Assembly (NCBI GenBank): GCA_903893485.1
Contig: CAITMK010000014.1
Location: 66,144 to 130,143 of the forward strand
Direction: 5' to 3'
Length of the DNA stretch: 64,000 bases
DNA from: Candidatus Magasanikiibacteriota bacterium
GTDB taxonomy: Bacteria > Patescibacteriota > Patescibacteriia > Magasanikbacterales > 2-02-FULL-50-9b
Shown here: positions 2,929-59,944 of the stretch, piece by piece
How the letters are laid out: each line of letters opens with the position of its first letter
Numbering within the stretch: the stretch's first letter is position 1
Translations under genes and position numbers: made by a program
The notes under the pieces: generated by a model
Told to the model about the DNA's origin: nothing
The model's input: the letters and a program-made list of their open reading frames with translations, nothing else
Databases searched by the model: none

Positions 2929-3115
2929 ATTAAGAATTTCTGTCTTGTATAGTTAGCCCTAATAAAATTTGCATTCTGCGCCGCGGGAACGGCTCGACAT
3001 TTCTATCATCCTGCAAGTATAGGATTTTTTGTACCCACTTCGCGCTGCATTAATTGCCGCGCGTTGTGAAGTACAAATTCCCTCCAGTATCTGTACTCCA
3101 CCTGGTTTTTATTTT

Positions 3116-4120: not shown

Positions 4121-4122
4121 AC

Positions 4123-4689: not shown

Positions 4690-4793
4690 GTAATAAGACG
4701 TGGCTAAAGGGAAAGTGTTACAAAATTAAAGCGAAGTATAGCGCAATACCCCCAGAAAGTCAACGCGGTATTTGCTAGATTTGTGGGTAAATA

Positions 4794-4823
4794 TTGACAC
4801 ATTTGTATAGAGTAGTGTAGACT
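4794..4823 (+). promoter_or_regulatory. Candidate sigma-70-type promoter for the HTH gene (TTGACA, 18-nt spacer, TAGACT), in a divergent intergenic region shared with the sigma factor gene
   Basis: Perfect -35 TTGACA at 4794-4799 and a TAnnnT -10-like hexamer at 4818-4823, 10 nt before the ATG at 4834. Visual call only. Confidence 0.3.
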
Positions 4824-4833
4824 TTTAATCACT

Positions 4834-5205
4834 ATGTCCATGAACGAAGTTATCCGAATTTCTATTTCCGAAACTGCCCGGCTTTTTGGGCTCAACTCCC
4901 AAACCATCCGCCGTGCCATTAAAACCGGCGAATTGCCAGCAATTGTGGTTCAAGGCCGTTATAAGGTTGATTTTGAAACCGCGCTTAAGTGGTCTCAGAT
5001 CCACAGCACCACCAAAAACAAACTTTCTTCGCGTGGCATTGGTCAATTTGTTAACGAATGGCGTCCAACGATTAAACAAGCCGAACTTCCAACTCCAACG
5101 GAGCCAGAAGCGCCTGAAGAACCAACTGCCGAGGCAAAACCGAAAGCACCTCGCCGCAAATTAGGCCCGCGCACGGACATTTCGCAGCAAGCTCTGCCCT
5201 TCTAA
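4834..5205 (+). CDS. Excisionase-family helix-turn-helix DNA-binding protein
   Basis: N-terminal HTH resembling excisionase/MerR-type HTH_17 (ISETARLFGLNSQTIRRAIKTGELPAIVVQGRYKV). C-terminal Pro/Glu/Lys-rich tail. Divergent from the sigma gene. Confidence 0.6.
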   Translation: MSMNEVIRISISETARLFGLNSQTIRRAIKTGELPAIVVQGRYKVDFETALKWSQIHSTTKNKLSSRGIGQFVNEWRPTIKQAELPTPTEPEAPEEPTAEAKPKAPRRKLGPRTDISQQALPF

Positions 5206-6363
5206 CGAGCCGCACGTTTCAAGCGCCACGAGCGCCACATGATACCGCGCCGCGATTAATTCCCAACGATATTGTTCCTGGATGCGACGTGCATGTGCAA
5301 GCGCCACCGCGCGAACTTCTTCATAGTGCACCACATTACGTTCCAAATCGCGGCTCAGGCGATCTAAATCGCCAACCGTATTGTACACGTGCATCTCACC
5401 AAAAATTTCGCGATGCGCCGGAATGTTCGAAAGCACAAGCGGCACACCAAACGATGCAACTTCCAAAACCGCAAGCGGCATACCTTCTGAATACGAAGGC
5501 TGCGCGGCAACGCGCGCAAAACGCATTAATGTTTTCAGTGGTGCACCGGTTTGTACACCGGTAAAAATAATATCCGTGCGCCCTGCTGCCTGCTCACGCA
5601 AACTTTCAGCGTAATTATCACCGAGCGCCGCTTCACCAACTAATACTAATTTTAATTTTGCAAACTCTGGCTCTGTTCGTTTTTTTAAACGAATGAAACT
5701 TTCAATTAATTCATGCTGCGCCTTGTCTGGCATTAAACGGCCGACACATAAAATATATTCTTCTGGCTGCAAACCAAACGCGGCAAGTGTTTCGTGGCTA
5801 TCAGCTTCGCCTTCGGCAATTTCAAAAACACCGTTTGGCAGATACGTTGCAATGCGCCCCCATACTTCATACGAGTAGTCTTGCAAAAAACGACTCGTCA
5901 CAAAAACTTCATGCGCCGCATGCATGGCAATATATTCGCCAAACCAAAACGCGGCGCGTGCAATAAAATTCCATTTCGAAAGACGACGATCCAAACAGTG
6001 AAACGTTACGAGCACTTGCGTGCGCGGCGCAAAAACGCGCGGCATCCACGCCAAAAGCGCTGGACCAATACCCTGAAAATGAATAATATCCGCGCCAGTC
6101 CACATGGCATGGATCGTTGCAAAAAAAGTATGCGAAATGGTATCCAAATGCTTCGTATGAATCGATGGCACATGGACCAGATCGATACCTTGGTAATTTT
6201 CAACCAGGCCTTTGGTGTACCAGCGGCGACAATAGGCCGTCACGTGGTAACCAGAACGTACCATACGTACTGCCAATTCCTCGGTTGCACGTTCAACGCC
6301 ACCCCAGAGTGCCGGGATGCCTTTTTGGCCAATATAAGCGATTTTTTTGGAGTGTTTCTGCAT
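5161..6363 (-). CDS. Glycosyltransferase family 4 (GT-B fold)
   Basis: Glycos_transf_1-type C-terminal half including the EGMPLAVLEVASFGVPLV motif, with a GT4 N-terminal domain. 400 aa. Confidence 0.8.
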   Translation of the reverse strand: MQKHSKKIAYIGQKGIPALWGGVERATEELAVRMVRSGYHVTAYCRRWYTKGLVENYQGIDLVHVPSIHTKHLDTISHTFFATIHAMWTGADIIHFQGIGPALLAWMPRVFAPRTQVLVTFHCLDRRLSKWNFIARAAFWFGEYIAMHAAHEVFVTSRFLQDYSYEVWGRIATYLPNGVFEIAEGEADSHETLAAFGLQPEEYILCVGRLMPDKAQHELIESFIRLKKRTEPEFAKLKLVLVGEAALGDNYAESLREQAAGRTDIIFTGVQTGAPLKTLMRFARVAAQPSYSEGMPLAVLEVASFGVPLVLSNIPAHREIFGEMHVYNTVGDLDRLSRDLERNVVHYEEVRAVALAHARRIQEQYRWELIAARYHVALVALETCGSLEGQSLLRNVRARA

Positions 6364-6414
6364 AGGGCGTTCTGGTATCAGAACTGCCTATAATAGCAGA
6401 GATTAGCGATTTTG

Positions 6415-7581
6415 TCAATACTGAGCGCTGAGCACGCTCATAAGCTGTTCATAATACAATTCCGGGTCGCGTGTGGCCAAAACTATGCGACGAGCTTGCG
6501 CGCCAACATGCCGCGGCGGCGTTGCCAAAATTTTACTTAAAATTTCCGCTAATTTTTCTGAATCACCCGATGGGAATAGATAACCCGTTTCACCATTTAT
6601 GATTTGCTCTGGAATTCCACCAATTGCACTTGCCACCACAATCTTCCCGGCTGCCTGAGATTCCAAAACCACAAGAGAATCATTCTCATACCAAATTGAT
6701 GGCACCACAACCGCTGCCGCACCTCGTACGTATTCAATAACATCTTCTGGTGATTTATCACCAACAAACGCAACATTGGGCGGTCCTTTTTTTGGAACCG
6801 GCCCGTCACCAATAATTTGAAATTGCGCGTGTGGTAATTTTTCTGCGGCCGCACACAAAACCGCAATTCCTTTTTCTGGCACCAAGCGACCAATAAATAA
6901 AATATATGATCCATCAGCGGGCGCGGTTAAAATGCTATCCGCATCAACAGGATTTGGAATGTGCACAAATTTTTCTGTGCGCCATCCGCGAGCCACATGT
7001 TTTTCGATTACAAATTTACTTGGCGAAATTATTTGATTGATAAAATTAAATGCGCCGAGCCGACGATGCAATGTCCAACCAAACCATGCGCCAAAACTTT
7101 TGATAAAAGAATTTTGCACGCTGCAACTGATCACATCGTTAAATCCATACAGTGGCGCATTACCGCAAAGTTCATCAATATGATCATGCGAAAATAATTT
7201 CCAGTTCGGACAAATTAATTTATACGCATGCGCGGTAAAAATAATTTTTATATGATGACGACGCAACGTCCACAAAACCGTTGGGCCAAGTGCGTCAAAA
7301 ATGCCGTGAATGTGAACCACATCTGGTTTTGTTTTTTCAATCAGCGCCGATAATGCGCGGTCGACTTCGCGTGACCAAATGGCGCGCACACTTTTTTGTA
7401 AAAATGTTTTTGCATCGCTCACAAAGTATGGTGCAAATTCGGAAAATTTATTTTCTGGCGCGCGCGTTGAAAAATCAATTACGATATGACCGTGCGATTG
7501 TAAAAGTTCGCGCTGTAAAAAAAAGACGCGTTCAACGCCACCAACATCGTGGAAAAAATTATTGATGAGCAAGATGCGCAT
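6415..7581 (-). CDS. Glycosyltransferase family 4
   Basis: MRILLINNFFHDVGGVERV GT4 N-terminal domain plus a Glycos_transf_1 C-terminal domain. Start chosen at the internal Met (MRILL). Overlaps the upstream GT gene by about 23 nt. Confidence 0.8.
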   Translation of the reverse strand: MRILLINNFFHDVGGVERVFFLQRELLQSHGHIVIDFSTRAPENKFSEFAPYFVSDAKTFLQKSVRAIWSREVDRALSALIEKTKPDVVHIHGIFDALGPTVLWTLRRHHIKIIFTAHAYKLICPNWKLFSHDHIDELCGNAPLYGFNDVISCSVQNSFIKSFGAWFGWTLHRRLGAFNFINQIISPSKFVIEKHVARGWRTEKFVHIPNPVDADSILTAPADGSYILFIGRLVPEKGIAVLCAAAEKLPHAQFQIIGDGPVPKKGPPNVAFVGDKSPEDVIEYVRGAAAVVVPSIWYENDSLVVLESQAAGKIVVASAIGGIPEQIINGETGYLFPSGDSEKLAEILSKILATPPRHVGAQARRIVLATRDPELYYEQLMSVLSAQY

Positions 7582-8653
7582 ATACCCGTTCATAATCCGC
7601 GACCATCGCGCGAATATCAAAATCTTTTTGCGCTTTCACGCGCGCGGCCGCACCTAATTCACGCGCGGCCGCTTGGTTTTGCCACACGCGACGAATTGCA
7701 ACTTGCAGCGCATCGACATCTTCTACTGGCACCAACATACCGGTTACGCCATCATCAATTAATTCAGGAATACCGCCCACATTACTTGCAATTACCGTGC
7801 GACCCGCGGCCATGGCTTCCATAATTACCAAACCAATTCCCTCCCAACGCGACGACATGACCACTACATCCGACGCGGCCAAATACGGCGCCACATCCAT
7901 GTGCGTGCCCACAAAATGCACGCGATCATGCATGTGATTAATAATTGCCAAATCAACTAAACTATCTTTTGCAGAACCTTCGCCGACCAACGTTAATTCC
8001 CACGGCACATCACGCAAAGTTGATAATGCATTTAATAAAATGTCGTGTCCTTTTTGTGGCTCCAAACGGCCGATCGCTAAAAGTTGCATTACCTCACCAA
8101 AAGGCGCTGGCGGAATTTGCGCAAATCGCCCAGTCTCGACCGCATTGCGAATAACTGTAATTTTATCGGTCGGAAAATTTTCTTCTTCAACTAAAAATTT
8201 TTTTATGCCGTCGGAAGCCGCAACCACCGCGCTTGATCCGTACGACAAAACTTGCTTGATACGATGTTTTAATTCACCAATATCAACATCAGTATTTTGC
8301 TCCGAAAAAACTAAGTGTGGCACGCGATTTAATTTCGATGCGATCTCGCCCCACAAATGCCCGCCAAATAAATGTGTGTGTACAATGTCTGGCTCCAAAC
8401 GATTCAAAAGTGCGATTAATTCCACCAGCATCACGAGCCCCAATTCCGATGTTTTTTTAAGCGGATAATATGGCACGCCAAGTTCGCGAATGTCGGCTTC
8501 AAGCGGGCCGCCATCAACAATCGTAATTACCGCAAAATCAAACGCGTCGCGATTTCCATAGCGCACCAATTCCGTCAAAATGCGTTCCGCGCCGCCGAGC
8601 GCCAGCGTTGGAATAATATGCACTACTTTTAGTTTTCGAGTTGCGGTGTTCAT
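7559..8653 (-). CDS. Glycosyltransferase family 4
   Basis: KVVHIIPTLALGGAERIL N-terminal motif and Glycos_transf_1 C-terminal domain (EGIGLVIMEAMAAGRTVIASNVGGIPE). Start MNTATRK chosen, giving an ATGA overlap with the upstream gene stop. Confidence 0.8.
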   Translation of the reverse strand: MNTATRKLKVVHIIPTLALGGAERILTELVRYGNRDAFDFAVITIVDGGPLEADIRELGVPYYPLKKTSELGLVMLVELIALLNRLEPDIVHTHLFGGHLWGEIASKLNRVPHLVFSEQNTDVDIGELKHRIKQVLSYGSSAVVAASDGIKKFLVEEENFPTDKITVIRNAVETGRFAQIPPAPFGEVMQLLAIGRLEPQKGHDILLNALSTLRDVPWELTLVGEGSAKDSLVDLAIINHMHDRVHFVGTHMDVAPYLAASDVVVMSSRWEGIGLVIMEAMAAGRTVIASNVGGIPELIDDGVTGMLVPVEDVDALQVAIRRVWQNQAAARELGAAARVKAQKDFDIRAMVADYERVYAHLAHQ

Positions 8654-9996
8654 AGAAGAGAGGCCAGACAGAGCCCGACCAGGACCCACACTTTACCATC
8701 AAAATAGCCAGTGTTAAAGAGCTGATAGGCCCACAGAGAAATAAACGTAAAAAACCAAACGGCTTCGAATGCGCTGTGGCGACGCTTCCACAAACGCCAA
8801 CCCAAACTTATGAGCAACGCCAAAAACGCGATTGTGCCAAGCGCGCCGGTTTCTGCCATCACTTTTTGCAAAAATCCGTGCGCATCGAGCGGGTCGCCGT
8901 AATCTAATCGAAACGCGGCGGTCTCGCCAACTAATTGAATAAACGTACCCGGCCCCTGCCCGGTGAGCGGCGCGCGATTAAAATACGTAAGAGCAATGCC
9001 GGTTAAATCTGTACGCGTTGCATTGCTGCTGTCGGCCACGGCGGTGTTTTCGATCCACATGAAAAATAATGCGACCACGGCAACAACCGCCACAATTGCA
9101 ACGCGCCGGCGACCCGTATGTTTTCCAAAAAACCACAGCCAGCCCAAACCTTGCAGCGCCAAAACAATCCATGCAGCGCGCGAAAAAGTTAATGCCGAGA
9201 CAATTGCAATGAGTGCCGCTGCCCCGCCCCAGAAAATTTTTGCCGCGCGCGTTTTTTGTTCACTCGCCCACCACACTGCAAACGGAATGATCGCGGTCAA
9301 ACTTTCAGCGAGCACATTATGATTCGTGCCAAATGGAATGTATCCAAAAATTGCAAATGGTTCTGCGCGCGGAAACCCAATGGAGCTGGTCACAAAAATC
9401 GAAACCGCGCCCATGAGTGCGCCCGCCAAACATGCAATTTCATACGCAACCGCGGCATAAATAATTTCTGCTCGGCGATTTACAAATAATAAAATCGGCA
9501 ACACGAACGCCAGATACGTAAAAAGATATGGCCGAAAAAATGCTTTAAGCGATGTACCAAAATAAATGGGATCACCAAAATATACCGCAGCCGCAACCGC
9601 CGCAAACCAAAGCAAAAACCACGGCAAATGATTTTTGATGTGCGCGGGAAATATTTTTTTGTGATTAATGAAAAAAATTATTGGCGCGGCAACTAACAAA
9701 ATAATGGCGATAAAATCTACCACTGGCGCTTCGATGCCACCAAGATAAGGCACACGCGATAAACTTTGTTCACTTGCAAATGAAATTGCCAGCCCCGAAA
9801 GCGGTGCCGCCGCGGCAAGCGCATACACACCCCATACTGGCCGTGCAACGACCGCAATAAAAATTGCTAACAGCGCAAAAACAATTACCACGCCCGCCCA
9901 TGAAATATAAAAAGAGGCCGCAATGCTAAGCGCAATTGCAATTCCAAACCACGCTACCAATTCCCATGTGGCACGTTCAATGAGCTGCTGTTTCAT
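8650..9996 (-). CDS. O-antigen ligase/polymerase (Wzy/WaaL-like) polytopic membrane protein
   Basis: 448 aa with about 10-12 predicted TM helices. Wzy_C-like segment (LTFSRAAWIVLALQGLGWLWFF). Clustered with three GT4 genes. Confidence 0.6.
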   Translation of the reverse strand: MKQQLIERATWELVAWFGIAIALSIAASFYISWAGVVIVFALLAIFIAVVARPVWGVYALAAAAPLSGLAISFASEQSLSRVPYLGGIEAPVVDFIAIILLVAAPIIFFINHKKIFPAHIKNHLPWFLLWFAAVAAAVYFGDPIYFGTSLKAFFRPYLFTYLAFVLPILLFVNRRAEIIYAAVAYEIACLAGALMGAVSIFVTSSIGFPRAEPFAIFGYIPFGTNHNVLAESLTAIIPFAVWWASEQKTRAAKIFWGGAAALIAIVSALTFSRAAWIVLALQGLGWLWFFGKHTGRRRVAIVAVVAVVALFFMWIENTAVADSSNATRTDLTGIALTYFNRAPLTGQGPGTFIQLVGETAAFRLDYGDPLDAHGFLQKVMAETGALGTIAFLALLISLGWRLWKRRHSAFEAVWFFTFISLWAYQLFNTGYFDGKVWVLVGLCLASLL

Positions 9997-10023
9997 GCTG
10001 CCCAGTATACCAAAGTTGGGAAT

Positions 10024-10054
10024 ATAAAAAAACTCCTTCTGAGGAGTTTTTTTA
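10024..10054 (-). terminator. Rho-independent terminator after the coiled-coil gene
   Basis: Hairpin AACTCCT-TCTG-AGGAGTT flanked by A and T runs, 5 nt past the stop at 10059. Confidence 0.5.
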
Positions 10055-10058
10055 TTGC

Positions 10059-10373
10059 CTACTGTGCAAATCGCAACTCAGCAATTTGTTCGGCGCGTTT
10101 TAAATAGCCGACAATTTCATCGTGAAAATTGAGATTATCGTTGCGAAACAGTTGCATTTCTGTGGTTAGACGCTGCTCAACGTCTGTTAAGCGTAAATCA
10201 ATCGCTTCAATCCGTGCACTCAACCTTACTTCAACATCGTCGATTTTGGCAGTCAAATTAGTTTCAACTTCATCAATCCTTGCCGTTAACCGATCTTCGA
10301 CATCTAAAACCTGCTGCGTGGCTTGCACCGCAACCGCGCCAATCATTTCAATAATATCACCCTCCTTGATCAT
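10059..10373 (-). CDS. Small coiled-coil protein with four tandem 11-residue repeats
   Basis: LTARIDEVETN / LTAKIDDVEVR / LSARIEAIDLR / LTDVEQRLTTE, with a matching 33-nt periodicity in the DNA. Confidence 0.5.
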   Translation of the reverse strand: MIKEGDIIEMIGAVAVQATQQVLDVEDRLTARIDEVETNLTAKIDDVEVRLSARIEAIDLRLTDVEQRLTTEMQLFRNDNLNFHDEIVGYLKRAEQIAELRFAQ

Positions 10374-10493
10374 AATAAAAAAATATGAATAATTATTTGC
10401 ACTATACCAAACGAAAAATTTCTGTCAAATAAAAAAACGCCGACAGCTCCCGTGGGGAAACTGCCGGACATGGGGCTTTGCGCGGTCGCGTGA

Positions 10494-10988
10494 TTAGCCG
10501 CCCTGCGCCTCTGCACTGCGCCGGATGAGAACCGCCTCGGTTGGAGGCATCCGCATCTCTTCGAGCAGCCGTTGCAGCGACACGTGGTTGATGCAATTCC
10601 ATGTGCTGTAATGGATCGCCACAATGCCGTAGTCGCGCACGCTCTGCACGACCTCCGCGTTTTCATCGACGACGACATTGACTTCAAGCTCCTGGCACAG
10701 CACCGCCTTCTTGGAATCGTCATCGACCACATGGACATTGATGAGCGACGCGGCGAAACCGTCGAGCCAATACTTGAGCCACTCCTGCAAGAGATCGGCG
10801 TCGAGCTGCTCGCGCCCCGGCTTGGTGACGAAAACAAGGTTAACTTGATGTGAGCGCACGGCCCACATCAGTGTCTCGATCGCTTTTGGAAAAAACGGCA
10901 CTTTGCCGAATCCCCCGCGTTCGAATGCCTCGATTTGCGCGCCGTTAAACAGCGCCAAAGTATTTGCCACACCAAATGCAATTCGCAT
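10494..10988 (-). CDS. Hypothetical protein (GC-elevated segment)
   Basis: ORF with a GGAGGG Shine-Dalgarno 5 nt before the internal ATG (MRIAFGV…). No recognisable domain. GC is clearly higher than in flanking host genes. Confidence 0.5.
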   Translation of the reverse strand: MRIAFGVANTLALFNGAQIEAFERGGFGKVPFFPKAIETLMWAVRSHQVNLVFVTKPGREQLDADLLQEWLKYWLDGFAASLINVHVVDDDSKKAVLCQELEVNVVVDENAEVVQSVRDYGIVAIHYSTWNCINHVSLQRLLEEMRMPPTEAVLIRRSAEAQGG

Positions 10989-11145
10989 GACACCCTCCAT
11001 GAGTTGTGAAACTCGAGAAAAAAGCATACCACAAAATGGCCCGAAAGTCAAGGGTAATAGCTGCTTTTTTGTTCAAAATATAAAAATAAAAACAGGCAGC
11101 AACTTTTTGCAAAGTGCTGCCCGGAGCGAGGACGACGCGATCGCG

Positions 11146-11901
11146 CTAATCGTCATACGCTACAGAAACCTTGGTTGAACTGAACTGCGCCTCGCGCTTC
11201 ATGTCCAGGATAAAGTCCACTGCCTCGCCGTTGCTGCGATACGAAAGCTCGGACTGGTTGCAATCTGCCACCGCGCGCAAACCATTTTGCACGGTCGTGC
11301 GCACCAGCAGGTTGGCATCCTTGGAATACTGGCCGTCGTTGATAACCTTCACACGGACCGTGGCGCCACGCTTGCCAAACACGCGGATCAGCGTTTCCGC
11401 GCCATCGTACGGACCTTTGGTAATTTGCCGCGGGCACATGTAATTGAGCACGTGCGGCGCATTATCCTTCGTCCATTCTGAGCGTGGAATCACCTGCGGA
11501 ATTTGCAACTCCGCAGACTTTTCGGACAAATGGAATGGCGCCCGCTCCGCATATTCCAGAAATTTCTCGAACGCGACATCTTGCGTCGCCGTGTCGGTTG
11601 GCGAGCATGCCATTTGCGCCGCCGTGCCGCCGTTGAACAGCTGCAATTCGCAGTACACGTCGTGGATCTGTTCTGCAGACGAGGCGGCCTCTGGAAGTCC
11701 AACCGCCACGGATGTCACCGCTTCAATTGCAGGCGTCGGGTCCGACGGCACAATGTTCGCGATGAGTTCCTGGCGATACACGATGCACGCAATGAGAACC
11801 GCCAACGCCGCAGAAATAAGCAGCGCGCGATCAACCTGCCGCGCGTTCCAAAACGACCGTCCGATTTCACTTACCGGAATTCCTTTTGGGAATTTTTTCA
11901 T
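11146..11901 (-). CDS. Hypothetical N-terminally membrane-anchored protein (GC-elevated segment)
   Basis: 251 aa, one N-terminal TM segment (ALLISAALAVLIACIVY). No recognisable domain. Confidence 0.55.
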   Translation of the reverse strand: MKKFPKGIPVSEIGRSFWNARQVDRALLISAALAVLIACIVYRQELIANIVPSDPTPAIEAVTSVAVGLPEAASSAEQIHDVYCELQLFNGGTAAQMACSPTDTATQDVAFEKFLEYAERAPFHLSEKSAELQIPQVIPRSEWTKDNAPHVLNYMCPRQITKGPYDGAETLIRVFGKRGATVRVKVINDGQYSKDANLLVRTTVQNGLRAVADCNQSELSYRSNGEAVDFILDMKREAQFSSTKVSVAYDD

Positions 11902-11929
11902 GAGTCCTCCAACTCGGTGAGGGGGAAAG

Positions 11930-12370
11930 TTACCCGGGCACCATACCGGATTTTGGGGGTTTTGTCAATGGTGAGAGGGCCAAAAACTTTTGCATTTCGA
12001 TACAGACTTTTTCGTAGAGATTTTTTTCTGAGACGCGGATTGCGCAGAGACGCTGCGTGGCCCAAAGACGGAATTGCATGCCACGAACTGCCCGGAAATT
12101 CCGGACAGTTGGATTTCGCTCTAATTCACCCTCTTCGTACAGTTTCTGAACATGTTCAGAAACAGTGCGTTTATCTTTTTGAAAAAGATCGACCATTTGC
12201 ATAAGACTCAAACACACCGTTTCGTCCTGCAAACGCACCTGAACCTGCAGCGATCCATCGGCAGCTTCGTATAAAATAATTTGGTTTTGATGTTCCCCGC
12301 CCTGAGACAACATATTTTTAAAATTAAAATGGCATGCAAAAACTATGCCCGAACAAAAACCGAATGTCAA
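11930..12370 (-). pseudogene. RhuM-family (virulence-protein RhuM-like) gene remnant, internally deleted and C-terminally truncated
   Basis: N-terminus matches the RhuM family pattern (IILYEAADGSLQVQVRLQDETVCLSLMQMVDLFQKDKRTVSEHVQKLYEEGELE … NFR-AVRGMQFRLWATQRL). About 30 aa of the conserved middle (YNLD…GYRV) are missing, and the ORF ends about 200 aa early. Confidence 0.55.
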
Positions 12371-12547
12371 GAGTGGTTATGCACTTTTTGTGCACAGAAA
12401 ATTCCGTGAAATAAAAAAACACCACACCGCTTGAGCATCCTGGGTAGGATTGCAGCAAGCAATGTGGCGTCACTCAACTCGTTGTGTGAGTGTGACCCTT
12501 TCGGATCATTGCAGAGTCGCCGTTACTGAGGCGCTACTGCGTTGGAA

Positions 12548-14464
12548 CTACTGCGGCGTGAACGTGAACTTCGCGGTGCCCTTCACGTAGCCGTTCAGGT
12601 TCTTCGGGCCAGAGATGCCGTCGAACCAGAGGCGCTGATTGGGCTGACCCGTGCCGCTGAAGCTGATCGCCGTCTGACCGCCTTGCAGGCAATCCGACGC
12701 CGTCATTTCCTTCGGCAAATCCGGCCCGCAATTGACGGTCTGCTGCAGCATCATGAGGATGCTGGTGGAAGGCGAAACCGTCTTGTCCGGCGCAATCGTG
12801 ACCGAGACCTTCACGCTTTGCGGCGCGCTGATCACGTACACTTGCTCCGGGCCAGTCGCGCCCGAAACCGTCATGCCGTCCGCGCACGTCCATTTGTCCA
12901 CCGTTTGCTTTCCGGCGGGCGCAGTGGTCGTGTCGACGTTTTTGCTAATGACGAGCGTGCCGCTGCCCGTGTAAGTAACGTAGACCACGTCGCTGCACAC
13001 ATCGCACGCGCCGCCTTCGTCGATCTGCAAGTTGCAGTTGTCGTCGAAGCCGTTGCAGACCTCCGGCGCATTCGGGTGGACGCTCGCCTTCGAGTCGTCG
13101 CAGTCCGTGTCGTCAAGGATCCACTTGCCCACGGGCGCGCATGCCAGCGTCGTCACGGCCGCGTTGCCGTAGCCGTCGCCATCGCCGTCCCAGTAAAGCG
13201 TCAACTTCACGCCCTCGTCGATCTGCTTGTCGCAGTTGTCGTCGAGGCCGTTGCAAACCTCCTTGGCGCCCGGGTAGATGGCGGCGTTGGTGTCGTCGCA
13301 GTCCGTCGAGTCGCTCACGTAGCCGGCCGGAGCCGAGCACGCTTGCTTGGTGCTGCTGAGGTTGCCGAACTTGTCGCCATCCGTGTCGGCGTAGTAGGTC
13401 GTCTGAACGCCCTCGTCGATCTGCTTGTCGCAGTTGTCGTCGAGGCCGTTGCAAACCTCCTTGGCGCCCGGGTAGATGGCGGCGTTGGTGTCGTCGCAGT
13501 CCGTCTTGCTCGTGACCTTGAAGTTCGCGTCTGCCGAGCACTGGCACGAACCGCTACCGGCGCCGTAAGTGTCACCGTCCACATCAGCGTAGAACCAGGT
13601 GCAGTTGAGCACGTTGCCTGCCGGATCGACGCTGCCATCGCAGTTGTCATCGACGCCCACCGTACTGCAATCGTCCATGATGCCCGGGTGAATCTTGGGA
13701 TCCAGGTCGTTGCAGTCATCGGAACTGGTCACGTAGTTGAGCGGCTCGGTGCAGCCCATCTTCGTGCTCGAGGAAAGGCCATGACCGTCGCCGTCGCCGT
13801 CGAAATAGAACGTCGTCTGGACGCCGTTGTCGATGACGGTGTCGCAGTCATTGTCCTTGCCGTCGCACGTTTCCTTGACCGGCAGACCCTGCGTGCACGT
13901 CGGATTGGGGTCCAGCGTGCCGTCCGGTTTGCATGCCAAAGCGTCGCAGGCGCATTCGCCGACGCCCACTTTGGTGCCCGGAAAGCTCGCCTTCGGCGGC
14001 GTCATGCACAAGAAGCGCGTGATGCCGTCGGTGGTTTCCAGCGGCACGGGAACCGAGTCCACGCACTTGCTGTTGGTCGAGGCCGCCACCGCCGCATCGC
14101 AGCCGCCGGACGAAGTGCTGAACGACGCGTCGTCGAGACCCAGCGGCGAAGCCGAGCAATCGAACGCCATCGCATCGAAGTTGTACGGGCAATCCGGCGC
14201 GAGCACGCACTTCTGGATGCTCTTGTTCCACGCCCACTTGGTGCGGTGAATCGGATCATCGGGCAGCGCGTCGCACAGCGTCTGGCTGATGGCCAGCTTG
14301 GCCGTGAGCGCGAACGATTGCGAGCCGAACGTCGCCGTCGGCGCTTGGGGCGCGGTTTTCACCGCATCGAGCACCGCAGAACCGCTCTGCGGTGCGGTCG
14401 GACCGGCACAGCCGATCAGACTTGCCAGCGCACAAAGCGCCAGCAAAGGGTTGAACTTCTTCAT
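12548..14464 (-). CDS. Secreted lipoprotein with tandem MopE-like putative metal-binding Cys/Asp repeats (C-x-GxDDNCDxxIDEG … DGDGxG)
   Basis: Signal peptide with lipobox LIGC. At least 5 repeats of the MopE-type motif (DCDDTNAAIYPGAKEVCNGLDDNCDKQIDEGV). GC about 60-65% with GC3-rich codons. 638 aa. Confidence 0.8.
   Translation of the reverse strand: MKKFNPLLALCALASLIGCAGPTAPQSGSAVLDAVKTAPQAPTATFGSQSFALTAKLAISQTLCDALPDDPIHRTKWAWNKSIQKCVLAPDCPYNFDAMAFDCSASPLGLDDASFSTSSGGCDAAVAASTNSKCVDSVPVPLETTDGITRFLCMTPPKASFPGTKVGVGECACDALACKPDGTLDPNPTCTQGLPVKETCDGKDNDCDTVIDNGVQTTFYFDGDGDGHGLSSSTKMGCTEPLNYVTSSDDCNDLDPKIHPGIMDDCSTVGVDDNCDGSVDPAGNVLNCTWFYADVDGDTYGAGSGSCQCSADANFKVTSKTDCDDTNAAIYPGAKEVCNGLDDNCDKQIDEGVQTTYYADTDGDKFGNLSSTKQACSAPAGYVSDSTDCDDTNAAIYPGAKEVCNGLDDNCDKQIDEGVKLTLYWDGDGDGYGNAAVTTLACAPVGKWILDDTDCDDSKASVHPNAPEVCNGFDDNCNLQIDEGGACDVCSDVVYVTYTGSGTLVISKNVDTTTAPAGKQTVDKWTCADGMTVSGATGPEQVYVISAPQSVKVSVTIAPDKTVSPSTSILMMLQQTVNCGPDLPKEMTASDCLQGGQTAISFSGTGQPNQRLWFDGISGPKNLNGYVKGTAKFTFTPQ
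13209..13505. repeat. Intragenic direct repeat: two identical 99-bp copies (13209-13307 and 13407-13505) with a 198-bp period
   Basis: Exact identity by direct comparison of the two stretches. They encode an identical 33-aa MopE-like motif twice. Confidence 0.85.
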
Positions 14465-14708
14465 CTTTGAAATCTCCTGTCAAAAAACACGATCGCTCTT
14501 TCGAGCCTCCCTCCCCACCGCGCACTCGCGCAGTAGGTAATTGTCGGCGCCGGGATAAAACGCCTGACGAATTCATCTCCTTATTGATGTCGTCAGGATT
14601 TTCATCTTTTAAAAAATAGGACCCCGGCAGCAGCAGCGTTCTTGCCACTGCTACCGGGTGAATCATTTCTCGTCTGATTCAGACGTTGCGCGGCTCGTTG
14701 GCCTGCGC

Positions 14709-16398
14709 TTACTTCTTGAACTTGGCGCACCAATCCACGACACCGCCTGGACCAAACATGTCCGGCAAAGCGATGTTGCTCTCGATGTCAAAGTCACCGG
14801 GACCCAGATCCACGAGCGGCACCAAAGCGCCGAGCGGATCTTGTACCGTCATGTACGGACCGCCAATCGCGTAGTGATCCTTGCCCTTGTTGAGCATGGA
14901 ATACGCGGTGCCGCCAAATTCGATCGGCGGAGTACCCTTGGCCGCGCCGACGTCGTACGCGTCACAAAACAGCTGCGCCGAGATCTTCACTTCGGGCGAG
15001 ATGCCCGAGATGTAGTTCGGAGCACCCGCCAGCTTGAAGTAGCCCCAGCTATTCCCGATAGTGGTCAGGATCATAGCATACGGCGCCGGCGCGTACAAGC
15101 CCATGATGTCCGAGCTTTCGCCCGTGCTCATCGTGAAAAACAGCGGCGTCCATTCACAGCCAACCTGCGAGTCGCAGGTGTCCAACGTCCAGTACTTCTG
15201 GTCGTTGCACTTGGCGGTGACCGTTGCGAAGGACCACGGAACAAACTGGCAGCCCAGCAGCGGCAGGCACGAATCGTCGGTGCACTTGTCGCCATCATCG
15301 CACGTCACGACCGTACCCTTGCAGGCAGCGGTCTTGTCGCAGATGTCGCCGTCTGTGCACAGATTGCCGTCCGTGCACGACTTGCCCACAATGGGCAGGT
15401 GCTTGAACACGCCGGTCTGCGGATCACACTTGGCGTCCTCCGTGCATTCGTTGCCGTCGTCCTCGAGCTTGGCCTCCGACAAGCACTTGCGCAGATCCGT
15501 ATCGCACGTCACCTGGATGCACAGATTGCCTTTGAATTGCGGCTGCGCGAGGCAGTCCGCATCCGTGTTGCAATCGTACGCCGGCAAACCTTCACAGGTG
15601 CCGGCCGTGCAAACGTCATTCTCCGTCGCCGGATTCCCGTCGTCGCACTTGCTGCCATCCTTCAGCTCCGCGGTCTGGCAGCCCAGCTTGGCGTCGCAGG
15701 AATCGGTCGTGCACGGGTTGCCGTCGTCGCACTTCAGGGTCGAACCTTTGCATGCGCCGACCGCACAAGTATCCGCTGTCGTGCATACGTTCCCGTCATC
15801 ACACGCCGCCGTGTTGTTCGCGTAGACGCAGCCCTTGGCTTTGTCGCACGAGTCATCGGTGCATGCGTTGCCGTCGTTGCAGGGCAACGTCGCGCCTTCG
15901 CACGAACCCGCCTTGCAGCTGTCGCCGGTGGTGCAGGCATCGCCGTCGTCGCACACGATTGCCGTGGCGATTGGTGACGCGACGCACTTGCCGAGCTTGG
16001 CATCACAGCTGCTGACGACGCACGGGTTGCTATTGTCGCAAACCACGGACACGCCCTTGCAGTAGCCAACGCCATCGCAGGCGTCGCCGGTGGTGCACGC
16101 GAGCTTGTCGTCGCACGCCGTGCCTTCCTTGGGATACGTCGCGCCTTTCGGCCGAACGCATTGCCCGGAAACGCACGTGAACTGGACATCGCATGTGGTC
16201 TTGTTCAGCGGCGCGCAATCCGGATTCGTTTCGCACAGCACGATTTGTGCCACAGAAACGTCCGGCGCGGGCGCCTGAACATCGACCTGAACGCTGCCGG
16301 CGTCCTCGGTGGGCGCGCTACCGCCCGAACCAGCTGCCTGCGTACAGCCCGCGACAATCGCGAACGGCACGCAGAGTTTGATCAAACGCGTGAACATG
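14709..16398 (-). CDS. Secreted lipoprotein with about 12 or more Myxococcota-type cysteine-rich disulfide repeats (C-x-DGN-x-CT-x-D-x-C)
   Basis: Probable start MFTRLIKLCVPFAIVAGC (lipobox VAGC). Repeats such as CDDGDACTTGDSC, CNDGNACTDDSC, CDDGNVCTTADTC, CDDGNPCTTDSC. C-terminal roughly 170 aa is non-repetitive. GC-rich. Confidence 0.8.
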
Positions 16399-16573
16399 AT
16401 AAACCTCCGAAACAAGTTGAGACACTGTTGGCACACAAGAAAAAGAGCCGAGGAGCAACCGCGAGAAATAACCGTGAGGAATCTCCCCGCAGATCAACCC
16501 CCGACGCCAAAGAATTTGGAGAGGGAGCGACATATGAGAGTATCACAATCCCGCAACAATGTCAAGCCTCTAA

Positions 16574-16628
16574 AATAAAAAAAGACCCCCGAAACCAACC
16601 GCGCGTGATGCGTTGTTGGTCCGGGGAG
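16574..16628 (-). terminator. Candidate rho-independent terminator downstream of the third island lipoprotein
   Basis: Imperfect GC-rich hairpin (CCCCGGACCAAC…GTTGGTTTCGGGG) followed on the minus strand by a T run of at least 8. Confidence 0.45.
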
Positions 16629-16679
16629 TCGGTTGTGGTATTGGGCGCCGGTCGGCGATGCAATACGAGGGGGTGACCG

Positions 16680-18032
16680 CTAGAAGAAGCGATCGAGGAT
16701 GCGGTAGGCGTCGCACGTAAGTGTGCCGAACATCGCCGTCTTGCCCGTACCGGCCGGCAACGTACCGTTGCTGATCGTGTACTGGTTCGGGACGATGTAG
16801 TCGACCGTCGTCACGTTGTTCGGGCCCGTGGTAAGGACCTGAAACGCGTGATTCGTGCCGACTTTCTTGGTTGCCGACGTGCAGCTTGAGCCGATGTAGC
16901 CGGGCGAGAAGTCGCCGGCCGCCCACTTGATGTAGAAGCCCGCGCCGTTCGCGCTGCTGTTCACCTTGCTGCACCACTTGTTGCTCACGCCGACCTGGGT
17001 CATGTTGAGCGAGTCGCCGTCCAAGGACCAGATGCCGCCGTACACGAACTCGCCGTTCACGGAAACGATCTGATCATCGGCCTGCACGCACACTTTGTAC
17101 TGGCCGCCGCTTTGCGCCGGCGTTCCGGTGTGCGAACACGTGATCTTGCTGGTGTCCGTGGTGGGCGTGGTCGTGCCGGTGCACTGGTCGAGCGTCGCGG
17201 CGTTGGCGTCATCGCAGAGGAAATCCGCGCTGACGGTGGGGTCAGTGGTCGGCGCGCAGCCGATCTGAATCCCGTTTTGCCACTGGCACATGCCTTTCAG
17301 CATGGCCTGCTTCTGGACGCCTTTCGCGCTGCAGTAGTACGTCGGCGAACCGTCGCACAAGCTGGGATCCGAGCAAGCGAACACGCCATTCAGCGCGTTG
17401 CACGCGCCGGTGAGCGAGTTGCAGACCTGGCCCGCCGGGCAGCTGTTTTGCGTGCAGCTTTGCGGCGCCGTGTTGGGAGTGTTGGTGCACTTGAAGGTGT
17501 TCCAATCCCCCGTGCACGAATCAGTCGTGCTCGGATCGTTGTCGCTGCAGCTGTAGGGCTGCGACGGCTGATTCGAGTCGTACTCGCAGTACTGCCCCGC
17601 GCCCGTGCCGAAGCACATGCCCGTGAAAAAGTACTGCGTGGCCACGCCGGCATCACAATGACGCGACGTCAGCTGACAGGTGACCCCGTCGCAGACGTGC
17701 GCCACTTTGTTGGGATCCACCTGCGGCACCGAGCACACGCCCGTGTCGCAAATCTGGTTCCCGGTGCACGTGCCGCACGAGCCGCCGCAGCCATCGCTGC
17801 CGCAGTCGTGCGTGCCGCACTTGGGCGTGCACGCGTCGGCCGAAGCCGTCGCGTCCGTGCCGTTGCTGGTGTCCGAGTTGCTCGCATCCGCCGCCGCGCA
17901 GCTGGCGCAGTCCGTGGACAAACCCACAATGGGCTGGTCGGCAGGCTGGTCGACCGGGATGGCGCAGCCGGTGAAACCGGTGGCGCAGACCAACGCACAC
18001 GCGATGGCCAGAAACTTCTTGACGTTCAACAT
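16680..18032 (-). CDS. Secreted Cys-rich lipoprotein (CGxxDCGxDGCGGSCGTC motif) with a C-terminal beta-rich lectin-like domain
   Basis: Start MLNVKKFLAIACALVCATGFTGC (lipobox FTGC). Many Cys in the N-terminal two thirds. C-terminal roughly 170 aa is Gly/Ser/Asn-rich and predicted beta-rich. Confidence 0.75.
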   Translation of the reverse strand: MLNVKKFLAIACALVCATGFTGCAIPVDQPADQPIVGLSTDCASCAAADASNSDTSNGTDATASADACTPKCGTHDCGSDGCGGSCGTCTGNQICDTGVCSVPQVDPNKVAHVCDGVTCQLTSRHCDAGVATQYFFTGMCFGTGAGQYCEYDSNQPSQPYSCSDNDPSTTDSCTGDWNTFKCTNTPNTAPQSCTQNSCPAGQVCNSLTGACNALNGVFACSDPSLCDGSPTYYCSAKGVQKQAMLKGMCQWQNGIQIGCAPTTDPTVSADFLCDDANAATLDQCTGTTTPTTDTSKITCSHTGTPAQSGGQYKVCVQADDQIVSVNGEFVYGGIWSLDGDSLNMTQVGVSNKWCSKVNSSANGAGFYIKWAAGDFSPGYIGSSCTSATKKVGTNHAFQVLTTGPNNVTTVDYIVPNQYTISNGTLPAGTGKTAMFGTLTCDAYRILDRFF

Positions 18033-18283
18033 GACAGACTCCTCAAGCAATAAGGCCGATTAGGCCGTGGGTGAAAAACAAACTGACACTGGAAAGGAAC
18101 GCAGAACTTCTGTGCGACGAATTACGTCGTAAACAAAAGCACTGAGTTCGCCTGACAAGCTGCGTGTTATGAAGGAGGGAGCATAACAGCTACTCGTCAG
18201 ACGAACTCAGCGCTCATGGCTTTTGTTGTCCGGGATGCTATTATCAGATGCTTTATATTAGTTGTCAAGAAACGTCCTGTGGA

Positions 18284-18340
18284 AAAAAATCTCCGGGGTG
18301 GTCGACAAGCGTTATTGCTTGCCGACCACCCCTTCGTTGT
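18284..18340 (-). terminator. Rho-independent terminator after the OMP gene
   Basis: Perfect 10-bp stem GGGGTGGTCG / CGACCACCCC followed on the minus strand by GGAGATTTTTTT. Confidence 0.5.
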
Positions 18341-18363
18341 TGCTCTTGCCGCCGGTTAGGTGA

Positions 18364-19335
18364 CTAGAAGCCGTACTGGATCCCGAACGTGACGCCGAGC
18401 ACCGGATCGAACTTGACGCCGTGGTCCAGGTTGCCCCGGAGGTCAAACGCGAAATTCGACTTGCCCATGAAAATCTCCGCACCCAGCGCCCCGCCGAACC
18501 GGTTTTCCGTCACATTGTGACTGAACCCGTTTTCAGCGATGCTGACCGCGTGGAAGCCGGCGTAGATCGCAAATTCGCGATGAAAATCGATCTTGGCCGC
18601 TGCCAGGTAATCGATCTCCGCGTGATTGTCGCCGCCGAAGGCCATGCGCACATCGAACTTGCCGTCCAGCCACTGGTGGCCGAACGATTCGATGCCGAGG
18701 CCAAAGCCACCGATGCCCGTCTGGTTCACGCCGCCGAAACCGGCGAGGATGAACTTCCACGAGGACGGCACGTTGGCGATCGGATTGACCCGGGGCGCCT
18801 GCGGCACGTACTGCTGCGGTTGCGGCTGCGGCGTGACCAGTTCCTTCCGGAGCTGCTTGAGCCCCGTCCACGCCGCCTGGGCGATGACCAAAGCCTCGCG
18901 AGCTTCGGACGCCGTCTGCAGCGTGTTGACCAGGATGCCGGCCTGCCGCGCCCGCATCAGCCGCAACGCGACGTCGTCGTCGTGATACTTGATCACTTCG
19001 ACGATGCGCGTGGCGGACACCACGCAACGGGGGTTGCGGAGCTGATCGTGAATCTTCTCGAGGGCGCTCACGCGCACGACGAGAGACGTGATCAGCTGCT
19101 GCGACAACCCGTTCGCACTCGCCTGCCCAGCCATCTGCTGGATCGTGGCGTTGCGCTCGGTCTTGGCCATGTCGGTCAACGTATCGACCGCTTTCGCCGC
19201 CTCCGCCCGCATCTCCGGAGAGAGCGGGCGATCGTCCGGCGCAGCGGGCGCCAAATTGACCTGCTGCGCAAACGCAGCCGGGGCCGAGACACAGAACATC
19301 AAGGTCGCCATCGCGACCGTCATCAACTTCTTCAT
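18364..19335 (-). CDS. Outer-membrane beta-barrel protein (signal peptide, C-terminal …GIQYGF)
   Basis: Cleavable signal (…SAPAAFAQQ). C-terminal about 150 aa show alternating hydrophobic beta-strand pattern ending in an aromatic-x-F terminus typical of BAM substrates. Confidence 0.65.
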   Translation of the reverse strand: MKKLMTVAMATLMFCVSAPAAFAQQVNLAPAAPDDRPLSPEMRAEAAKAVDTLTDMAKTERNATIQQMAGQASANGLSQQLITSLVVRVSALEKIHDQLRNPRCVVSATRIVEVIKYHDDDVALRLMRARQAGILVNTLQTASEAREALVIAQAAWTGLKQLRKELVTPQPQPQQYVPQAPRVNPIANVPSSWKFILAGFGGVNQTGIGGFGLGIESFGHQWLDGKFDVRMAFGGDNHAEIDYLAAAKIDFHREFAIYAGFHAVSIAENGFSHNVTENRFGGALGAEIFMGKSNFAFDLRGNLDHGVKFDPVLGVTFGIQYGF

Positions 19336-19588
19336 GACGAACTCCTACACAGTAAAGTGACCGCGAGGGCCACGAAAGAAACTACCAGTGAAAAGGGCGC
19401 GTGCTAAGTATCCGATCGGACACCTACCACTTCTGCTTTTGAGAGCATATCTGTACTGCCTAAAGCAACACGGACATGATCTTAAAATAATCGTCCTGGG
19501 GAGCGAAATCGTGGATTCGGCGGTTGCCTTATCACACTTCTTCGCTCCCCAAGGAGTTTGCGCCCCAGTCACTTAGGGGCATTTGGCG

Positions 19589-20275
19589 CTACGGCTGCCG
19601 CAGGAAGCCGTTCGCGCGCGCCTCGCCGTCGGCCCGCGCGCTCGCATACGCCTGATTCAGCGTGCGCAGCTCGCGGCACTGTGCCGGCGTCGGGTGCGGC
19701 TCGCCGTAGATCTGGCAGTCGCCGTCGCTCCGGGCAGCGCCGCGCTTGTCTTCGGACTTCGTGTGCGCTTTCGGGGCGGCGGGCTCGATCTTGATGACCT
19801 CGCCGTCGTCCTTCTTGTCGCCCGCGTCGTCGGACTTCACGTGTGCCTTGGCCTTGGCTTTCGCCTTGGCCGCCCACTCGCCCTTCCAGTTCTCCGTCGC
19901 GCCCTTGGTGGCGTCGTGGAGGCCCTTGGCGCCCAGGCAGTCCTGGTACGCAGCGCCGCACTTCGCGTTGGCCGCGTTGGCGAGTTCTTGCGCGCGCGCC
20001 TGGCAGATCTTGCCGCTCTCGCCGCAGTTGATGAACTCATGCGCCAAGATGTGCGCGACGAGATTCTTGCAGCTCGTCTGCACCTCCTCGCACGTCGAGG
20101 CCGTCGTCGGCGCCGGCACCGCAACCACCGCCGGCTTCGGCGGATCGTCGGTCGGCACTTTCACCGGGTCGACCTGCTTGGGGCAGTCCTTGCCGCAGGT
20201 CACCGTGGTGGTGCCGCACGCAGCAGCCGTCATCGCGACCAAAACCAGAACGCCAGAAACAAAAAGCTTCTTCAT
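19589..20275 (-). CDS. Secreted lipoprotein, hypothetical
   Basis: Signal plus lipobox (LVAMTAAAC). Cys pairs in the N-terminal half and a Lys/Ala/Asp-rich C-terminal half. GC-rich. Confidence 0.6.
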   Translation of the reverse strand: MKKLFVSGVLVLVAMTAAACGTTTVTCGKDCPKQVDPVKVPTDDPPKPAVVAVPAPTTASTCEEVQTSCKNLVAHILAHEFINCGESGKICQARAQELANAANAKCGAAYQDCLGAKGLHDATKGATENWKGEWAAKAKAKAKAHVKSDDAGDKKDDGEVIKIEPAAPKAHTKSEDKRGAARSDGDCQIYGEPHPTPAQCRELRTLNQAYASARADGEARANGFLRQP

Positions 20276-20545
20276 TGCTTGTGCCTCCCCAATCGGTTAC
20301 TACCGTGGGATCAGTTGACCTTCCAACAATACGAACACCCCAGTGGTGACGCACGTTGTCCAGCCAAATTCAGAAAACAAACTATTCTACCAACTAATTG
20401 TACGGAACTGGAACTGTTGCCCCACGAGATAGGCTTGTGGCCGTCTCAATGTGACTTAATACAATATCACACTTTCCTGGAAAAGTCAAGGGGGTGGGGG
20501 CCATTTAGACCCTCACCCCCAAGAAATGCAAAAAATTATTAAAAA

Positions 20546-21148
20546 TTAGCCAAAAATGCCGTGTTTATGGTGCGCCAAACTATAAATAAAGCTAACCGCT
20601 CCACCAAGCAGGAATCCTGCCACTGCAATTGCCAAAAAATTAGGCTTCTGTGGATACTGCGACGCAACTGGCGAATCAATAAGCCGGTAATCTGCCGCAT
20701 TAACCGCAAAGTCATTGCCCGTTCCACCCAGCACACCCGCAACCGTGCTCGCAATCGCAACGGCCTGCGCCTTATTGGTATGATACGCGGTAATTCCTAA
20801 AATGCCGGTATTATAGGTAACACTCGCATCAATGGTCTGAGACCAAAGCTTGCGGCGCTGCAGTTCGTCTGTTGGAAAATACGAAACATCAATCCCCGAC
20901 CCTGGCACGGCAATTACACGAGAAAAAAATTGACTCGTACCAACAACTTCCGCCAAATTTTGTGCGATACGCTCAGCCGCCTTGCTGCTGGTGTAAGGAT
21001 CAACTCCCGGCGTTGCGCGCGGTGTAATAAGTAATCGAGCTTCAGCGCCATACTTAAGTGGAAAAACCACCAACGCCACGAGACATGCAACAACGGCAAC
21101 CGCCAATCCGCTGCCGACTGACGTGTACAAAGAACGAGCGTAATTCAT
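20546..21148 (-). CDS. Putative polysaccharide chain-length determinant (Wzz/CpsC-like) bitopic membrane protein
   Basis: 201 aa from MNYARS. N-terminal TM and C-terminal TM flank a roughly 130-aa extracytoplasmic domain. The call is by topology and size only. Confidence 0.4.
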   Translation of the reverse strand: MNYARSLYTSVGSGLAVAVVACLVALVVFPLKYGAEARLLITPRATPGVDPYTSSKAAERIAQNLAEVVGTSQFFSRVIAVPGSGIDVSYFPTDELQRRKLWSQTIDASVTYNTGILGITAYHTNKAQAVAIASTVAGVLGGTGNDFAVNAADYRLIDSPVASQYPQKPNFLAIAVAGFLLGGAVSFIYSLAHHKHGIFG

Positions 21149-59814: not shown

Positions 59815-59944
59815 CAATATTCTCGGGGTTTGGTCAAAAGCCGAGCTCCGAGGATTTATTTTTTTAAGCCACAAAGACCTCTTGCGTAATTAGAAATAAT
59901 TTGATACAATTTGGCGGTAAAATTGAATAGGCGTGGAGAGGTGG

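Follow-up and report, generated by a model that had tools for sequence, protein, structure and literature searches.

A perfect 99-nucleotide repeat in a lipoprotein gene of a Candidatus Magasanikiibacteriota bacterium: a probable gene-conversion tract between old modules, in a cluster with GC-rich codons

When two segments of one gene are identical to the last nucleotide and the sequence between them is not, one must ask whether the gene has recently gained a unit, whether one segment has been copied over the other, or whether the identity was made by the assembler. The question is raised by a gene for a repeat lipoprotein of 638 amino acids (aa) in a stretch of 64,000 nucleotides (nt) from a Candidatus Magasanikiibacteriota bacterium (GenBank assembly GCA_903893485.1, contig CAITMK010000014.1, positions 66,144 to 130,143 of the forward strand), which we call the window and whose positions are used throughout. 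An earlier note on this DNA had described the gene as coding for a MopE-like lipoprotein with a perfect 99-bp intragenic tandem duplication, and had listed a very recent duplication, gene conversion or an assembly artefact as causes. We find that the identity is probably a recent, short, non-reciprocal gene-conversion tract between modules that are themselves old, both the recombination mechanism and the recency being what we infer for the patch.

The two blocks, at 13209-13307 and 13407-13505, agree at 99/99 nt with an extension of 0 nt on both sides and lie at a period of 198 nt, or 66 aa, so that the identity reported earlier stands as it was given. The 33-aa peptide TDCDDTNAAIYPGAKEVCNGLDDNCDKQIDEGV (TDCDD…DEGV) is encoded twice, at aa 321-353 and aa 387-419. 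The nucleotide block is shifted by one base from the codon frame, being made up of the third base of the preceding codon, 32 codons and two bases of the last Val codon of the peptide, whose third base differs synonymously between the copies. Each unit of the array (Table 1) consists of a 33-aa motif of the Pfam family PF11617 and a linker of ~33 aa of the form YxDxDGDxxG with one further Cys, giving four Cys per unit. Compared in codon frame, units U2 and U3 are identical at 98/99 nt over their motif halves and at 50/99 nt (51%) and 12/33 aa (36%) over their linker halves, in keeping with the earlier statement that the remainder of each 66-aa unit has diverged. An alignment of all the units, proposed in the earlier note as a check, bears out the identity of the U2 and U3 motifs and carries it no further, the linkers being diverged and the U4 motif only 78% identical to that of U2. 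Elsewhere in the gene, exact matches at an offset of 198 nt run to at most 15 nt, and if the 49 mismatches were scattered at random over the 198 aligned sites an exact run of 99 nt would have P < 3e-17. Tandem Repeats Finder did not call the array, similarity being limited to half of each unit; a separate repeat search returned three copies spaced 198 nt.

Gene conversion, among the causes listed in the earlier note, fits this pattern. The motif half of one module, either U2 or U3, would have been copied over its neighbour by homologous recombination, and the tract would have ended at the borders between motif and linker, where similarity drops. Conversion thus accounts for both the identity and its borders, because the tract is confined to the better-conserved motif half and ends where similarity collapses. 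The description as a tandem duplication does not hold: the linkers are about half identical, the five modules have one-to-one counterparts in a relative that is 35% identical, and recent homogenisation is limited to the motif half. A recent tandem duplication of the whole 198-nt unit, its linker half diverging later, would agree with the in-frame period and with the whole-unit exact duplicates of at least 66 aa that occur in many members of the family, yet it would have to leave the motif without differences even at synonymous sites beside linkers as diverged as these. No selection regime produces such a contrast between motif and linker after a single duplication, and U2 and U3 are each matched by their own counterpart in the relative. 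We find this explanation scarcely credible.

The relative is P0139 (JGI 3300014205 Ga0172380_10011337; ENA ERZ27247358 k141_659459; L065 1-9189 and L066 1-6092), a protein of 660 aa with five PF11617 stretches and the sole relative of the same architecture in an exhaustive HMMER search with the C-terminal domain. The alignment to P0139 begins at aa 139, and the two proteins are collinear over aa 139-633 at 33-35% identity, the modules pairing one-to-one with U0-U4 with small gaps only. The units of P0139 have a period of 207 nt, neighbours among them being 59-67% identical in nucleotides and exact runs reaching 20 nt at most, and a perfect patch is absent. Since the five modules are collinear in P0139 and the identical patch is not there, the array must be older than the split from P0139 and the patch specific to the lineage of the window. 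The starts of units U1' and U2' of P0139 (L065 1354-1400 vs 1561-1607) are identical at ~45/48 nt, against ~60-65% over the rest of the units. To judge by the sequences, conversion may have taken place here too, at an earlier time and with partial decay since, which suggests that conversion in these arrays is recurrent.

Whether the assembly can be trusted at a repeat of this kind was addressed with independent assemblies. The exact 638-aa protein is also encoded on an ENA scaffold from another sample (L001), which corresponds to 12014-17391 of the window (5378 nt) and differs from it by one mismatch, at 16071, outside the repeat-lipoprotein gene; the window and L001 cross both copies of the block identically. 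A 38.8-kb scaffold from a third sample (L002) is collinear with 1146-20704. The window, L001 and L002 do not differ in the gene, apart from a run of N in the repeat of L002. All four junctions of the repeat (X-R, R-Y, Y-R and R-Z, Y being the unique linker) are covered more than once, including by L002 and by a Logan contig (L003). Since the unique linker and each of the four junctions have been assembled, a single-copy collapse is logically out of the question; the artefact suspected in the earlier note is to that extent excluded, and the suspicion was sound in so far as assemblies do break inside the repeat. In its wider form, with slightly different copies homogenised by bubble popping or with a copy number other than two (collapsed R-Y units), we consider an artefact unlikely. 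Contigs break inside the repeat in L002 and L003, and the complete protein is recorded on one 5.4-kb contig only; against this, the window and L001 agree, the linker and junctions are assembled as described, and reads of the usual lengths exceed 99 nt and can bridge the repeat. Exact look-ups of the hypothetical one-, three- and four-copy proteins (572, 704 and 770 aa) in the protein collection found them absent, which is a weak negative.

Several points weigh against conversion between two perfectly identical copies. The scaffold L002 has a gap of 100 N (L002 7244-7343) at 13461/13462 of the window, inside the first copy (13407-13505), and L003 ends at 13238, inside the second (13209-13307); because both breaks fall inside copies, more than two copies are conceivable. 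In De Bruijn assembly, bubbles between nearly identical repeats may be popped, and the "perfect" identity could mask a few real differences. The comparison rests on a single relative of the same architecture, and conversion may have run in either direction, with U2 or with U3 as donor. The 99-nt repeat is a weak spot for short-read assembly of this genome, and claims about protein length call for read-level support.

Contig ends of independent assemblies also cluster elsewhere, at ~12007-12069 (L001, L004 and L005) and ~20704-20748 (L002 and L006), in addition to 13238 (L003) and 13461 (the L002 gap). This clustering at the borders of a GC-rich gene cluster, described below, could stem from a change in coverage or GC or from presence/absence polymorphism of an island. 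A 782-nt ENA scaffold (L064) carries the 3' part of the gene at 99.8% identity to 12306-12930. Its ends (1-127 and 754-782) do not match the window, for which it was disregarded; it is probably a low-coverage chimera. Its product, P0122, is the 90% cluster representative for the 638-aa protein, and P0123 was disregarded as a spurious cluster member.

The two identical copies would now be a substrate for an in-frame deletion or expansion of 198 nt (66 aa). The earlier note had expected slipped-strand length variation of a surface-exposed protein; at 99 nt, the relevant mechanism of length change would be homologous recombination between the copies rather than classic slipped-strand mispairing. 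One could go further and suppose a maintained contingency device, in which the identity of the copies is selected and recombination switches the length of the protein (antigenic or size variation). The gene does hold two in-frame identical repeats (2 x 99 nt at a spacing of 66 codons), repeats of 99 nt are long enough for homologous recombination, the protein is probably exposed at the surface, and the modules appear structurally independent in the AlphaFold2 model discussed below. There are only two copies, however, with half a unit identical; the exact look-ups found no length variants, the gene is invariant across samples, and P0139 is without identical repeats. We judge such a device highly improbable. 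Size-variable surface proteins with tandem repeats, such as the streptococcal alpha C/Rib and the staphylococcal Bap-type proteins, have many fully identical units and documented length polymorphism. The protein described here resembles them as a surface protein with identical in-frame repeats inside its gene and in the possible gain or loss of modules by recombination, and differs in having two identical half-units only and in that polymorphism was not found.

Exact repeats within one protein are nothing unusual in the family. Exact internal peptide repeats of at least 30 aa are present in ~40 of ~120 relatives, and of at least 60 aa in 22, with periods of 66, 132, 198 and 264 aa; the sample consists of matches from a full-length homology search and is biased towards repeat-rich proteins, which swamped that search, none of them covering >62% of the query. 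Modules of the PF11617 repeat family have clearly been homogenised or duplicated in recent times as a matter of routine, and the 99-nt patch is ordinary by that standard. The repeat itself is thus of little import, other than as a clear case of concerted evolution by short tracts within a modular surface protein.

The 638-aa protein belongs to this family by its profile as well as by its layout. PF11617 ("Cu-binding_MopE") matches it in four stretches with 145.1 bits (cut-off 27, E 6.3e-43), the motif alternates with DxDxDG and …C..P.GYV linkers in tandem modules of ~66-70 aa, and an alignment of 50 sequences shows the same 66-70-aa module family-wide, with invariant or near-invariant Cys, Asp, Pro and Gly columns common to the 49 relatives. 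Proteins annotated as "putative metal-binding motif" or "MopE-related" (in Myxococcota, among cargo of the type IX secretion system (T9SS) of Bacteroidota, and in others) are secreted and carry the module, DCDDxxxxxxPGAxExCNGxDDNCDGxxDEG…YxDxDGDGYG…C..P.GYV, in tandem arrays in which exact internal repeats are frequent. The present protein differs from them in having 4.5 modules, against ~10-15 in the best-scoring matches, in having a lipoprotein anchor instead of a T9SS or other tail, in its essentially orphan N- and C-terminal domains, and in its setting in a genome of the candidate phyla radiation (CPR) with foreign-looking codon usage.

The name of the Pfam family invites comparison with MopE/CorA, the copper-binding surface proteins of methanotrophs, and the earlier note had called the protein MopE-like. 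A lipoprotein with MopE-type motifs it is, by its lipobox and its four PF11617 stretches, and the likeness is confined to the Pfam motif of ~30 aa. Outside the motif there is no similarity, and a phmmer search against all PDB chains with the 638-aa protein found no relevant match at E<=1; the crystallised MopE* is among the solved chains. The copper site of MopE is made up of two His and a kynurenine derived from Trp, a feature of which the 638-aa protein has no alignable counterpart, and it is unlikely to bind copper. PF11617 itself is an unspecific profile that spans no more than a small part of MopE/CorA (PMC6189053), and its core has been aligned with Cys-rich regions of teneurins and algal proteins (PMC3278476). 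Because the likeness to MopE is limited to the 30-aa motif, the protein is filed as a PF11617 repeat protein and is not a MopE orthologue.

Table 1. Features of the repeat-lipoprotein gene and of the gene cluster to which it belongs (window positions).
Feature	Position	Strand	Basis or remark
Repeat lipoprotein gene	12548..14464	minus	Open reading frame, 638 aa; apparently transcribed alone
Signal peptide with lipobox MKKFNPLLALCALASLIGC, aa 1-19, ending …ASLIGC	14408..14464	minus	From translation
N-terminal Cys-rich region, aa 20-197	13874..14407	minus	Last ~60 aa conserved in P0139
Repeat array: U0 (partial), U1, U2, U3, U4 motif; aa 198-485	13010..13873	minus	Unit alignment
Identical block, copy 1 in gene order (U2 motif, aa 321-353)	13407..13505	minus	
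Identical block, copy 2 in gene order (U3 motif, aa 387-419)	13209..13307	minus	
Unique U2 linker between the block copies, QTTYYADTDGDKFGNLSSTKQACSAPAGYVSDS	13308..13406	minus	In window, L001 and L002
C-terminal domain, aa 486-638, 153 aa	12551..13009	minus	Only same-architecture relative is P0139
Shine-Dalgarno-like GGAG	14474..14477	minus	9 nt 5' of ATG, from sequence
Terminator-like hairpin, 15-bp stem then T run	14623..14658	minus	Closes the upstream Dicty_CTDC gene
Hairpin and U-run 3' of the stop codon	12407..12470	minus	Fold of 12400-12550: -65.6 kcal/mol, z = -7.35
High-GC3 cluster, five consecutive secreted-protein genes	12548..20275	minus	GC3, codon usage, Pfam, translations
Dicty_CTDC-repeat lipoprotein, 562 aa	14709-16397	minus	PF00526 CxDGNxCTxDxC repeats, E 8.5e-25
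450-aa Cys-rich lipoprotein	16680-18032	minus	
323-aa orphan with Sec signal peptide	18364-19335	minus	
228-aa lipoprotein	19589-20275	minus	

The gene itself looks monocistronic on the signals in its sequence, namely the hairpin terminator upstream, the GGAG before the start codon and the hairpin with U-run downstream, which is a probable intrinsic terminator. Because the upstream terminator-like hairpin stands between them, the Dicty_CTDC and repeat-lipoprotein genes are separated. The product contains 38 Cys, 11.8% Asp and 0.5% Arg. Its N-terminal signal peptide ends in a lipobox with Cys at +1, the pattern of a bacterial lipoprotein, and a lipobox is likewise present in P0139 (…LAALAVGC), both having been called by inspection of the pattern against the consensus without a predictor. 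No Lgt or LspA gene was among the scanned open reading frames (ORFs) of the window, in which no search aimed at them was made. The N-terminal Cys-rich region has no Pfam match at E<=10. The C-terminal domain gave 13 matches at E<=1e-3 in the exhaustive HMMER search, P0139 being aligned over aa 17-144 of the domain, and weakly resembles stretches of PKD- or PPC-domain proteins (E 5e-9 for P0134, which has 12 PKD domains). Scans of metagenome contigs with this domain re-found only the L065 contig. A query made of the N- and C-terminal regions with the repeats removed found no matches; it missed even its own cluster representative and is a weak negative.

AlphaFold2, given the 50-sequence alignment, predicts aa 200-485 with a predicted local distance difference test (pLDDT) of ~90 as successive separate modules, each linker forming a beta-hairpin; for the N- and C-terminal parts the pLDDT is <50. 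A model of the C-terminal domain alone, from two sequences, was unusable (pLDDT 37), its secondary structure being mostly strands, and a Foldseek search of the PDB returned nothing below E 3. The 38 cysteines and the lipid anchor point to an extracytoplasmic location. On present sequence evidence, the protein is best explained as a membrane-anchored, disulfide-rich extracellular lipoprotein made up of a lipid anchor, a Cys-rich region, a stalk of ~4.5 old modules of 66-73 aa, in each of which the PF11617 motif is joined to an Asp-rich DxDxDG linker, and a beta-rich C-terminal domain. DxDxDG-type loops are a known Ca2+-binding pattern, and the best reading of the array would be a disulfide-bonded stalk, probably stabilised by Ca2+, which holds the beta-rich C-terminal domain off the membrane. 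That the protein serves as a surface stalk or adhesin with Ca2+-stabilised modules is in our view about as probable as that it does not. We counted in favour of a surface role the adjoining Wzy/GT4 cluster for surface polysaccharide; it counts against these proposals that the function is wholly inferred, that a solved homologue was not found and that the terminal domains gave no usable model.

The repeat-lipoprotein gene is one of five consecutive genes for secreted proteins (Table 1), whose lipoboxes and signal peptide were read off the translations, and the compositional anomaly of this cluster is more interesting than the repeat. The genes have 61-68% GC and a GC content at third codon positions (GC3) of 0.79-0.90, against a GC3 of 0.35-0.47 in the rest of the window, which has 48% GC overall. 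Codon choice is flipped for every amino acid (AAG, for example, makes up 84% vs 18% elsewhere), and the intergenic spacers within the cluster have only 46-53% GC. By composition, then, with its GC3 and flipped codons, the cluster has the character of a horizontally acquired genomic island. At its borders no flanking repeat >12 nt was found and no tRNA is present, the tRNAs of the window lying at 40.8 and 59.9 kb only; Pfam detected no recombinase among the cluster genes and two flanking ORFs per side, and donor homologues of the non-repeat parts of the cluster proteins were not detected.

The cluster recurs, for at least three of its five genes, at the locus of P0139. They keep their order there beside the same Wzy and three GT4 genes, the order being a 329-aa protein, Dicty_CTDC, repeat lipoprotein, Wzy, three GT4 and HTH_17, and the repeat lipoprotein agrees with that of the window in architecture and number of modules. 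Identity to the proteins of the window is 47-61% for the flanking proteins and 35-38% for those of the cluster, and the three cluster genes have a GC3 of 0.73-0.80 vs 0.48-0.58 elsewhere there. The cluster is thus neither absent from this relative nor traceable to an identifiable donor. The lack of mobility genes, flanking repeats, an adjacent tRNA and a donor, together with the GC3-rich synteny in the P0139 organism, argues against a simple recent import, and with that synteny and elevated GC3 a recent import that was later ameliorated is hard to square. The P0139 locus differs from the window in being without three extra ORFs that the latter has between the lipoprotein gene and Wzy, at 10494-12370. 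Two of these (185 and 251 aa) have a GC3 of 0.67; the third (146 aa) has a weak RhuM-like match (E 0.07).

A similar anomaly is seen in a Candidatus Uhrbacteria metagenome-assembled genome (MAG; GCA_043808565.1), where a MopE-related gene for 994 aa (L068 5473-8457) has a GC3 of 0.74 vs 0.28-0.42 for its neighbours. A serine recombinase/Toprim element with host-like composition adjoins that gene. In non-CPR organisms (Bacteroidota, a 60% GC genome and a 46% GC genome; L069, L071 and L072), the GC3 of MopE-type genes matches that of their flanks, and the idea that GC3 is intrinsic to the gene family was rejected for this reason. Usage of "optimal codons" of the host was rejected as well: IF3 and SmpB, likely to be highly expressed host genes, and an Uhrbacteria HU gene keep AAA and GAA vs AAG and GAG in the cluster. 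A chimeric contig as the origin of the cluster was rejected, the left junction being present in L001, L002 and L003, from other samples or runs, and the right junction in L002. A diversity-generating retroelement was dropped when the ORFs scanned with Pfam showed no reverse transcriptase. In the three Cys-rich cluster proteins (12548-18032) and P0139, Arg makes up 0.5-0.7% and K/(K+R) is 0.84-0.95; K/(K+R) is ~0.2 in two Corallococcus MopE proteins, and P0114, from a 60% GC genome, is similarly Arg-poor. With P0114 in view, the Lys-rich, Arg-poor composition says less against a high-GC donor than it would otherwise.

Bacteria of the CPR spend their lives attached to other cells, and surface proteins are their likely points of contact; here a cluster of orphan, Cys-rich lipoproteins beside a surface-polysaccharide locus keeps GC-rich codons across a deep divergence. 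Possible causes of the codon anomaly are recurrent transfer into CPR genomes or GC-biased gene conversion (Lassalle et al. 2015, PMC4450053) at a recombining locus. We put forward, as a doubtful proposal, that the cluster, rather than having been imported recently, is a long-term resident of this CPR clade, in which a locus-specific process holds synonymous sites ~40 GC points above the genome. That process might be GC-biased gene conversion at a recombination-prone locus, the 99-nt tract then being a fresh footprint of it, or it might be repeated replacement of the cassette from an unsampled high-GC partner, possibly the host bacterium of the episymbiont. Should recurrent transfer from host bacteria or biased conversion prove true, this would matter for our picture of the way in which streamlined symbionts gain and keep their surface repertoire.

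Two of the other cluster proteins call for a remark. The Dicty_CTDC repeat copies of the 562-aa lipoprotein are diverged, and perfect repeats are absent from it. The 323-aa orphan ends in …GIQYGF and has a C-terminal half rich in Gly and aromatic residues, recalling a small outer-membrane beta-barrel, a type of protein that would be odd in a CPR cell; it has no Pfam match, a word-indexed search returned only the protein itself, and a scan of genome contigs returned nothing.

The rest of the window has the cast of its lineage: its P-type ATPase shares 75% identity with one from a MAG of Candidatus Magasanikiibacteriota and ~50% with the ATPases of numerous other Patescibacteria, and DUF5667 and DUF5666 proteins are encoded as well. 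A tmRNA gene (27356-27755, plus strand, 125 bits) lies ~2.7 kb from the SmpB gene (24239-24691, plus strand), and the tRNA genes are those for tRNA-Asp (40843-40919) and tRNA-Ser (59935-60024). A protein of 1942 aa (44840-50668, minus strand) with PA14, Sortilin/BNR and peptidoglycan-binding domains has a host-like GC3 of 0.37, from which it follows that GC-rich codon usage is not common to all large surface proteins of this genome.

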